Shown here piece after piece: positions 34,099-35,006 of a stretch of DNA of 64,000 nucleotides. The DNA comes from a phage. The translations under genes and the position numbers were made by a program. Each line of letters starts with the position of its first letter. Positions within the stretch are counted from its first letter, which is position 1. The stretch lies in sequence record OR896157.1, one strand, 5' to 3'. Below the pieces are notes generated by a model. The model saw only the letters and a list, made by a program, of their open reading frames with translations. It was not told the origin of the DNA and made no database searches.

Positions 34099-34118
34099 GG
34101 GACTCCCGAAGGAGTCCC
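34099..34118 (-). terminator. intrinsic terminator with C(UUCG)G loop
   Basis: Plus GGGACTCC-CGAA-GGAGTCCC; minus-strand RNA has the hairpin followed by UUUUUU. Confidence 0.7.
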
Positions 34119-34129
34119 GAACTTATGCT

Positions 34130-34309
34130 TTATGCTTTCTTACGTGGATTACCAAATGCAGCATCATGAGCAATAACTTTGCGAGCGCGAGATGCTAGCT
34201 GGTCAGCCAATGGATTAATACGAGAGTTAGACCCACGCTTGTAGCCAGCGCGTTTAGAGGTACCAACAACTTCTTTTACTGCAGTTTTTGCTTTAGCTTG
34301 TTTAGCCAT
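34130..34309 (-). CDS. small highly basic protein (59 aa)
   Basis: MAKQAKAKTAVKEVVGTSKRAGYKRG...NPRKKA, about one third K/R; followed by a canonical terminator. Confidence 0.5.
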   Translation of the reverse strand: MAKQAKAKTAVKEVVGTSKRAGYKRGSNSRINPLADQLASRARKVIAHDAAFGNPRKKA

Positions 34310-34626
34310 TTTTAGTCTTCCATTTTGGAGAAATACATGGGAGCACGTTCTTCCGAGTTTCAACTTCTTTCGACAGTTCTTTCGGTTGTAGCTCCCGCAA
34401 GCCCTCAAAGGGTACTTTGTGAGTTTTGTATATTTAACGTTCCGGTTCTCACAACCTTAACTTCATACGCTCTTATCTGTTGCACACCGTTAGCTTAAAG
34501 GTTCCGGGTCCGATTTCTCGAGGATAAGATATACACTGATGGATGCATAGGCCTTGAGGCGTACTCCCGATTGGCCATCACCTCGGGGTAGCATGCACTT
34601 GCCGCGTAACTTGCCTTACAGCAACA
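34310..34626 (-). other. ORF-free G+C-elevated segment; candidate structured RNA or gene remnant
   Basis: About 317 nt with no ORF of 60 aa or more in any frame in an otherwise tightly packed genome; contains GGGAGC...GCUCCC long-range complement. Confidence 0.3.
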
Positions 34627-34875
34627 TTACTTCAGAGTCACTACGAAATGACGAACCGCTTTACGAGCTGCTGAACACAGAGGTTTAGCAAACTTCAGCT
34701 CATCTTTCAGAGCAAGTACATCGCGGAGGTCTGCCTGAACAGGATTCAGATGTTTGAAACCTTTCAGAACTTCCAGTGCTTCGGCGTAAACGTCGATTGA
34801 TGCACCGTAGTTATCGTGACCTGCGTTCCAGGAGTTGCGCTGCAGATGCAGAGCGTGTTCAAGTTGTTTGTTCAT
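34627..34875 (-). CDS. rIII: rIII lysis-inhibition accessory protein (probable)
   Basis: 82 aa from internal ATG, same length as T4 rIII; immediately downstream of gene 31 as in T4. Confidence 0.7.
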   Translation of the reverse strand: MNKQLEHALHLQRNSWNAGHDNYGASIDVYAEALEVLKGFKHLNPVQADLRDVLALKDELKFAKPLCSAARKAVRHFVVTLK

Positions 34876-35006
34876 TGACATTATGTCATTCCTCAATACG
34901 AGGTTAATAAAAGGTAGACGGTACCAGAATTTAAGCTGCGCGTCTACCACCTTGTAATTTCTCCGGTTAACTTTTGTCCGGCAGCCAAATTACAATAATA
35001 TTTATA

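Follow-up and report, generated by a model that had tools for sequence, protein, structure and literature searches.

The gap between rIII and 30.9 in a T4-type phage is a mosaic of non-coding RNA modules within a recombination-prone T4-like region. Its principal member represents a strongly supported new family of structured RNA: a 143-nt molecule, hereafter the core RNA, whose six helices and predicted kissing loop are preserved by compensatory changes. Although few genomes have been studied as closely as those of T4-like phages, more than 400 deposited ones carry either no annotation of this RNA or a wrong one.

The gap between rIII and 30.9

The window, a 64,000-nucleotide stretch of sequence record OR896157.1, belongs to a PG7-like Karamvirus, a T4-type phage of Enterobacter (PG7 match ~98%). 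The local gene order on the - strand is cd, 31.1, 31, rIII, gap, 30.9, terminator. The features that frame the gap are:

34627..34881, - strand: rIII CDS, lysis-inhibition accessory protein (MSMNKQ...VTLK*; phrog_1457, E=7.6e-41; PG7 annotation)
34130..34309, - strand: 30.9-like gene, small basic protein of 59 aa (phrog_1427, a phrog with no assigned function, E=4e-29; gp30.9 annotated in PG7 and CC31)
34099..34118, - strand: intrinsic-terminator-like hairpin and T-run 3' of 30.9 (terminator scan)

A sequence-only reading of the window had singled out positions 34310-34626 as an ORF-free segment, and these coordinates match exactly the gap from the rIII stop (TAA, 34629-34627) to the 30.9 ATG (34309). 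The terminator that it placed next to the small basic gene is the hairpin at 34099-34118 (- strand). In all Tevenvirinae examined, rIII and 30.9 are separated by a gap of 148-398 nt.

As that reading had also claimed, independent ORFs reaching 60 aa are missing from the gap; the only listed candidate is a mechanical, TTG-started extension of the 30.9 frame. This frame is open upstream to a TTG at 34408 (34130-34408, - strand; 92 aa) and crosses the HP hairpin described below. The 30.9 ATG of relatives is the equivalent of 34309, and the JD18 annotation is slightly longer. The + strand of the gap carries one 57-aa ORF. ARAGORN called no tRNA or tmRNA gene in the 64-kb window, in agreement with the failure to see a tRNA by eye. 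The claimed elevation in G+C holds against the whole window (46.4% versus 40.3%) and against the 30.9 side, but not against rIII (~47%); the G+C content of the core RNA is 51.7%. What the sequence-only reading did not single out is the principal RNA itself, which occupies the rIII-proximal half of the gap (34466-34608).

Architecture and covariation of the core RNA

In the window, the core RNA starts 18 nt 3' of the rIII stop and lies within the 3' untranslated region of rIII. A covariance model, CM R1, has a single match in the 64-kb window (34457-34616, - strand; 183.6 bits, E ~1e-36). The RNA is composed of the following elements:

34466..34608, - strand: core RNA, 143 nt (alignment A1, RNAalifold, pair counts, CM R1)
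34604-34608/34466-34470, - strand: P1, closing helix; its sequence varies freely and its pairing is kept
34601-34603/34550-34552, - strand: P2 (GGC/GCC)
34593-34600 and 34553-34558, - strand: conserved internal loop (AAGKGCAU / CUYAWG), from P2 to P2a/b
34581-34592/34559-34574, - strand: P2a/b
34575..34580, - strand: L2b (UGAUGG), kissing-loop partner of L3 (six variants, covariation)
34543-34549/34530-34536, - strand: P3 hairpin
34537..34542, - strand: L3 (CCAUCA), kissing-loop partner of L2b (six variants, covariation)
34523-34529/34471-34477, - strand: P4, which encloses P5 and P6
34510-34521, - strand: P5 hairpin, mostly with a GNRA tetraloop
34505-34509/34484-34489, - strand: P6
34490-34504, - strand: L6, the conserved 15-nt loop of P6
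34478-34483, - strand: J6/4 (GCAACA)

In the RNAalifold model, P1, P2, P3 and P4 join without linker nucleotides and form a perfect four-way junction, while P4 opens into a three-way junction with P5 and P6. A predicted pseudoknot, the 6-bp kissing interaction between L2b and L3, locks the neighboring arms P2 and P3 together. About 45 of the unpaired nucleotides are nearly invariant.

The evidence for this fold is covariation. Alignment A1 comprises 26 distinct homologous sequences, from which RNAalifold obtained 44 nested pairs; in 23 of these, both partners had changed in compensation. When the pseudoknot was included (49 pairs), 97.8% of 1270 cells paired, as compared with 89.7% in shuffles and 28-40% when partners were slid. 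Both sides had changed in 26 of the 49 pairs; shuffles gave 7.7 +/- 1.7 such pairs (0 of 500 reached 26) and slid partners 6-10. The kissing loop itself shows double changes in 4 of its 6 pairs. It occurs in six sequence versions, each of which keeps a perfect duplex of 6-8 bp (general form YGAUGG x CCAUCR):

Moon/JD18 type: L3 CCAUCG, L2b CGAUGG
T-even/PG7/window type: L3 CCAUCA, L2b UGAUGG
Serratia phage 4S: L3 CCAUAG, L2b CUAUGG
Cronus: L3 UCAUUG, L2b CAAUGA
L020 (a divergent 175-kb IMG/VR genome): L3 AGUCAUUG, L2b CAAUGAUU
Slopek/Pseudoteven type: L3 GAAUGCA, L2b UGCAUUU

Thus, the RNAalifold analysis and the comparison with T-even genomes that the sequence-only reading had proposed found both conservation and covariation in the core, and the first of its three options, a structured non-coding RNA, is strongly supported by covariation among 26 homologues.

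The strand of the molecule can be read from its G-U pairs. With 84 G-U cells in the alignment, the fold as a whole is 99.2% canonical on the gene-sense strand versus 94.1% on the opposite strand, and this asymmetry indicates that the functional molecule is the - strand transcript. The core RNA has the orientation of the gene upstream of it. From strand, G-U pairs and position, we infer that it is transcribed with that gene as its 3' UTR and that it is stable. Folding energy was not better than that of shuffles (z = -0.58 over the whole 317 nt, -0.35 over the 143-nt core; neither strand gave significance); the case for structure therefore rests on covariation and not on energy.

Two small features of the alignment may be mentioned here. 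L6 of L020 (L020:540-575, - strand) contains a 7-nt insertion (…CCCAGCCUAUGGCCAGCUAAC), indicating that the distal part of L6 tolerates expansion whereas GCUAAC is invariant. The core RNA opens with the 7-mer GGCAAGU (P2 and the start of the junction), of which the window and PG7 have a second copy 5 nt upstream (AAGGCAAGUUACGCGGCAAGUGC; 34597-34615, - strand); the duplication may be a recombination scar.

Distribution and genomic contexts

BLAST detected the core in 407 phage records, with one copy in each, all of them T4-like phages of Enterobacterales. All metagenome and IMG/VR matches were to T4-like contigs as well. In the gap alignment, a block of ~140 nt is nearly identical in Karam-, Moon-, Jiaoda-, Tequatro- (ime09-type), Dhaka- and Mosigviruses and in Serratia phage 4S. 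R1 scored relatives at 100-191 bits across Tevenvirinae, Slopekvirus and Pseudotevenvirus. With filters off, R1 had no match in T4, in CC31, in the T4 tRNA/rnaC/rnaD region or in phage P8734. The gap alignment shows that the core is cleanly missing from T4 and CC31, both of which retain 30.9; the empty site of T4 reads GAATGT|GAATGA.

A host or plasmid origin was rejected: the core had no BLAST match in 5,426 E. coli genomes, where no likeness to a host RNA was found, and its matches to plasmids were chance 30-nt matches only. An exact core 19-mer was present in 0 of 185,579 bacterial species genomes. A loose gapped pattern matched at least 120 bacterial loci, for a chance expectation of ~200 matches estimated from database size, and none of the 80 listed (L062-L141) reached E<=1 by CM. 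Eight small viral contigs recovered with the same pattern proved to be chance matches on CM scoring, and a 3'-domain pattern search for remoter viral homologues gave nothing new.

In Tevenvirinae, the order is always rIII, core RNA, 30.9, with 30.9 as the next gene on the same strand. In the gap alignment, the distance from the RNA to 30.9 varies from ~65 to ~175 nt, as do the intervening modules. In JD18-type phages, the RNA stands directly before the 30.9 leader, and the leader hairpins and 30.9 follow within ~90 nt. The stop codon precedes the start of the RNA by 7-18 nt in several lineages and by ~125 nt in T-even-type phages. In the latter, the interval from the rIII stop to the site of RNA insertion holds another conserved non-coding stretch of ~125 nt, rich in hairpins (L003:1097-1216, - strand; equivalents in L004, L007, L008 and L009), which is present in T4 too but not in the window.

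A diverged branch (~100-117 bits with R1) is found in Slopekvirus (K41P2, mtp5) and Pseudotevenvirus (GAP161, Olmo), and nearly every helix in it has been rewritten by compensation. Here the RNA lies between uvsY.-2 and uvsW.1, ~15 nt 3' of the stop of the last small uvsY-operon ORF. It is followed by an unconserved spacer of ~170-190 nt and then by a conserved terminator that faces the convergent uvsW.1/uvsW, so that no gene on the same strand lies downstream of the RNA. When Slopek and Pseudoteven copies were compared as a pair, only the RNA and the terminator were conserved, and not the spacer between them. The presence of the RNA in two unrelated contexts shows that it is not tied to rIII or to 30.9.

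Several database annotations lie on top of the core RNA: a 'rho-independent terminator' in SA21RB and small hypothetical ORFs in G4498 and Olmo (L004:1354-1392, L007:785-1082, L184:556-829). All of these are probably artefacts.

Probable horizontal exchange of the core RNA

We compared the identity of the core and of its flanking genes to the window:

Tequatro-, Jiaoda-, Moon-, Mosig-, Dhaka- and Kanagawavirus: core 92-96%; gp31, rIII and 30.9 64-80%
PG7: core 93.7%; gp31, rIII and 30.9 99-100%
EcL8g: core 86%; gp31, rIII and 30.9 84-97%

Core and flanks are thus discordant. Presence and absence are also cleanly distributed within genera, as between T4 (without the RNA) and ime09-type phages (with it), or between CC31 (without) and PG7 (with). 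Taken together, these sequence comparisons indicate that the module has been exchanged horizontally and would be dispensable. Between genera, the identity of the core could reflect extreme constraint as well as transfer. The sequence-only reading had asked whether the region is absent or unconserved in close relatives: it is missing from T4 and CC31, yet where present the core is conserved far above the flanking genes. Modular shuffling is known for the hyperplastic regions of T4-type genomes (PMC2839356, PMC4122927), and the location of the core RNA fits this pattern.

Comparison with known RNAs

No description of the core RNA was found in Rfam 15 or in the searchable literature. Fremin et al. 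(2023; PMC10690425) predicted 10,006 viral structured RNAs; their text does not mention T4-like rIII, and the predictions may include the core RNA. An Rfam scan, suggested by the sequence-only reading, matched no family in the core even at E<=10, whether the 1.4-kb stretch or a 191-nt slice was searched. The Slopekvirus copy gave only chance-level matches to nos_TCE and sobemo_FSE (E 1.5 and 2.9, far below gathering) and terminator-like matches downstream.

In architecture only, the nearest analogue appears to be the lysine riboswitch (RF00168). That RNA, of ~150-180 nt, has a closing P1, a five-way junction and a 6-bp kissing loop that keeps P2 and P3 parallel. An internal loop in P2 aids the kissing, conservation is concentrated in the junctions, and the riboswitch resides in the 5' leaders of lysine genes. 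The core RNA likewise has a closing P1, a multi-helix junction, a 6-bp kissing loop between P2 and P3 (four covarying pairs), an internal loop in P2 and conservation concentrated in its junctions. However, it has no RF00168 match even at E<=10, its junctions are four-way and three-way instead of five-way, and it lies 3' of rIII or uvsY.-2, with 30.9 or no gene next and no lysine genes.

Phage intergenic regions often contain small ribozymes, which lie on the coding strand and are patchily distributed. The core RNA resembles the hammerhead, twister, twister-sister, pistol and hatchet ribozymes in being intergenic, on the coding strand and patchy and in having junctions with tertiary loop contacts, but it is larger and none of their models match. 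Pseudo-ToxI antitoxin mimics and RNA anti-CRISPRs are non-coding, dispensable and horizontally acquired phage RNAs that bind a host immune protein. These mimic host repeat units, whereas the core RNA has no repeats and no likeness to E. coli genomes or plasmids; its resemblance to RNA-based counter-defence can be put forward only as a hypothesis, by analogy.

Among T4 RNAs, rnaC and rnaD (species 1 and 2 RNAs) are similar in size (119-139 nt) and, like the core RNA, non-coding, dispensable, found in a T4-type phage and still enigmatic (T4 annotation). They differ in that they are located in the tRNA cluster and are unrelated in sequence, and T4 is without the core RNA. Homology to them was rejected on these sequence differences and on the lack of an R1 match, with filters off, in the T4 tRNA region. 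PeSL cassettes are short non-coding modules between accessory genes that have been implicated in shuffling and indels among close T4-like genomes (PMC2839356, PMC4122927). Each consists of a simple stem-loop with a sigma-70-like promoter, repeated many times per genome (PMC2839356, PMC4122927). The core RNA is similar to them in mobility and not in anatomy: it is single-copy, 143 nt long and built of six helices and a pseudoknot, with no promoter called in it, and we rejected an identity with PeSLs.

Possible function of the core RNA

RNAs with several junctions, a pseudoknot and dozens of invariant unpaired nucleotides are usually riboswitches, ribozymes or the specific partners of ribonucleoproteins. 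With a little more than even confidence, we favor the reading that the core RNA is a self-contained accessory RNA, a scaffold that would show invariant loops to a conserved partner. It would be a domain in its own right and not a regulator of neighboring genes. The contact surface would be offered by the rigid fold, through its invariant internal loop, L6 (15 nt) and J6/4, and the partner, whether a protein, a second RNA or a small molecule, would be one conserved among Enterobacterales hosts or among the phages. In this way the RNA might give a dispensable, horizontally traded advantage, for example in host takeover or counter-defence; that it is distributed patchily and exchanged horizontally suggests that its accessory role is adaptive and may belong to the conflict between phage and host. 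We prefer this reading to its rivals for three reasons: the setting of the Slopek/Pseudoteven copies, the variability of the spacers and the extent to which unpaired sequence is invariant. Against it stands the fact that all Tevenvirinae copies are upstream of 30.9, directly before the leader in the JD18 type, and a cis role in these phages is possible.

As a speculative possibility, the core RNA may be an aptamer-like decoy or sponge, passed horizontally among phage genera as a cassette of 150 nt, whose invariant loops would catch either a nucleotide immune signal or some protein conserved among enterobacteria. Conceivable targets are defence sensors or effectors, RNases, and ribosome or RNA-polymerase factors. 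If true, the core RNA would found a class of its own among non-coding determinants of counter-defence or host takeover, and T-even phages would have, beside rnaC/rnaD, a second case of enigmatic stable RNAs.

It is rather unlikely that the core RNA is a cis-regulatory element, such as a riboswitch-like aptamer or a protein-binding leader, that senses a ligand and governs 30.9 and the 30.x genes behind it through transcription read-through or translation. The architecture is aptamer-like in its closing P1, multi-helix junctions, kissing loop and invariant junction nucleotides, and 30.9 is the next same-strand gene in every Tevenvirinae member, within ~90 nt together with its leader hairpins in the JD18 type. 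The 30.9 product, small and very basic, could also bind RNA. However, the Slopekvirus and Pseudotevenvirus copies have no same-strand gene to control, and T4 and CC31 keep 30.9 without the RNA. Moreover, the distance to 30.9 (~65 to ~175 nt) and the modules within it, including a possible promoter, vary, and the gap alignment revealed no conserved alternative pairing, terminator or antiterminator involving the 3' strand of P1 and no alternative that would sequester the Shine-Dalgarno sequence.

A self-cleaving ribozyme, or a processing element that separates or trims polycistronic transcripts, is an unlikely identity. The complex junction fold, the loop-loop contact and the invariant internal loops are typical of ribozymes, and the RNA starts 7-18 nt past a stop codon in several lineages. 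Yet no Rfam ribozyme family matched even at E<=10, no catalytic core is recognizable, the 'CUGA' strings are base-paired and covarying, and in Slopekvirus-type phages nothing lies downstream to be separated.

We regard as very unlikely a purely passive role, in which the RNA would stabilize the 3' UTR by blocking 3'-to-5' exonucleases or RNase E and so prolong the life of the rIII or uvsY.-2 mRNA. The RNA is indeed always close to, or immediately 3' of, a same-strand coding sequence, but a stable hairpin would suffice for this, and neither the invariance of ~45 unpaired nucleotides nor the covariation of the kissing loop would be explained. In addition, the RNA lies ~170-190 nt before the real terminator in Slopekvirus-type phages and ~125 nt past the stop codon in the T-even type.

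Finally, a decayed or unannotated small protein gene (the decayed gene being another option of the sequence-only reading) or a chance ORF-free stretch without function is hardly credible, and we rejected the coding reading: a 34-codon ATG ORF (MLPRGDG...) does overlap the core in the window, and depositors annotated ORFs in G4498 and Olmo, but this recurrent ORF stops after 3-7 codons in 12 of 37 homologues, PG7 included, and is frame-shifted or unrelated in several more, core indels are of 1, 2, 4 and 7 nt, helix variation is compensatory, and conservation is far above that of the flanking genes.

A new RNA class in model-like coliphages is directly testable. JS10, ime09-like phages and the BASEL phages Paracelsus and AlbertHofmann are suitable for this purpose, with T4 and CC31, naturally RNA-minus relatives, as ready controls.

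The HP hairpin and other elements of the gap

The remainder of the gap, between the core RNA and 30.9, contains:

34419..34465, - strand: variable spacer (gap alignment; the JD18 type is without it)
34430-34439, - strand: conserved CGTTAAATAT box in the spacer (window, PG7, Moon, T4-type phages, CC31)
34398..34412, - strand: small hairpin CCCUUUGAGGG followed by CUUG (CCC-loop-GGG(G)CUUG), single copy in the window
34339..34396, - strand: HP module (GGGAGC...GCUCCC), a 58-nt irregular hairpin of three short helices (RNAalifold, CM R2)
34316..34321, - strand: Shine-Dalgarno-like GGAAGA, 6 nt before the 30.9 ATG (read from the sequence)

HP is a second uncatalogued covarying RNA module, in the 5' leader of 30.9. 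The complementary GGGAGC and GCUCCC arms that the sequence-only reading had noticed are present at 34391-34396 and 34339-34344, 46 nt apart. They form this separate and smaller hairpin, so that its option of a regulatory leader is borne out only in part. Compensatory changes affect 8 of the 16 HP pairs, among only six sequences (RNAalifold), and the internal loops are invariant and purine-rich (CUACAA, UGUCGAAAGAAG, GAAGAACGUG). A hammerhead-like reading of 'CUGA...GAAA' in HP was rejected, as these bases are paired and covarying.

CM R2 has one match in the window (88.3 bits). HP occurs in 832 phage records, once per genome, and is never annotated. It lies upstream of 30.9 in Karam-, Moon-, Jiaoda- and Marfaviruses and upstream of rIII in T4, RB69 and Dhaka-, Mosig- and Tequatroviruses. 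Further copies are at L003:1492-1556, L185:501-565 and L186:496-560. The last of these (L186, also L193) is in Klebsiella phage P8734 (PQ133625, about 2078-2142; 78.5 bits), which is not T4-like (146 kb; major capsid protein of 337 aa). There HP stands 10 nt upstream of a tRNA-Leu within a cluster of 14 tRNAs, which hints that HP is a signal for RNA processing or stability, or else a small stable RNA, rather than a translational operator. With covariance models of the core RNA and of HP, spurious ORF and terminator calls would be put right in many phage genomes.

In the spacer, a GTTKW-like -35 region precedes the CGTTAAATAT box, which may, from its sequence, be an early-type promoter for 30.9; a sigma-70 scan did not call the box as a promoter. 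A spacer hairpin, GUGAG/CUCAC, was discarded because T4-type sequences do not support it. The CCCUUUGAGGG-CUUG hairpin is found in T4 and CC31, which are without the core RNA, and it follows the RNA both in Tevenvirinae and in Slopekvirus K41P2 (L031:1044-1070).
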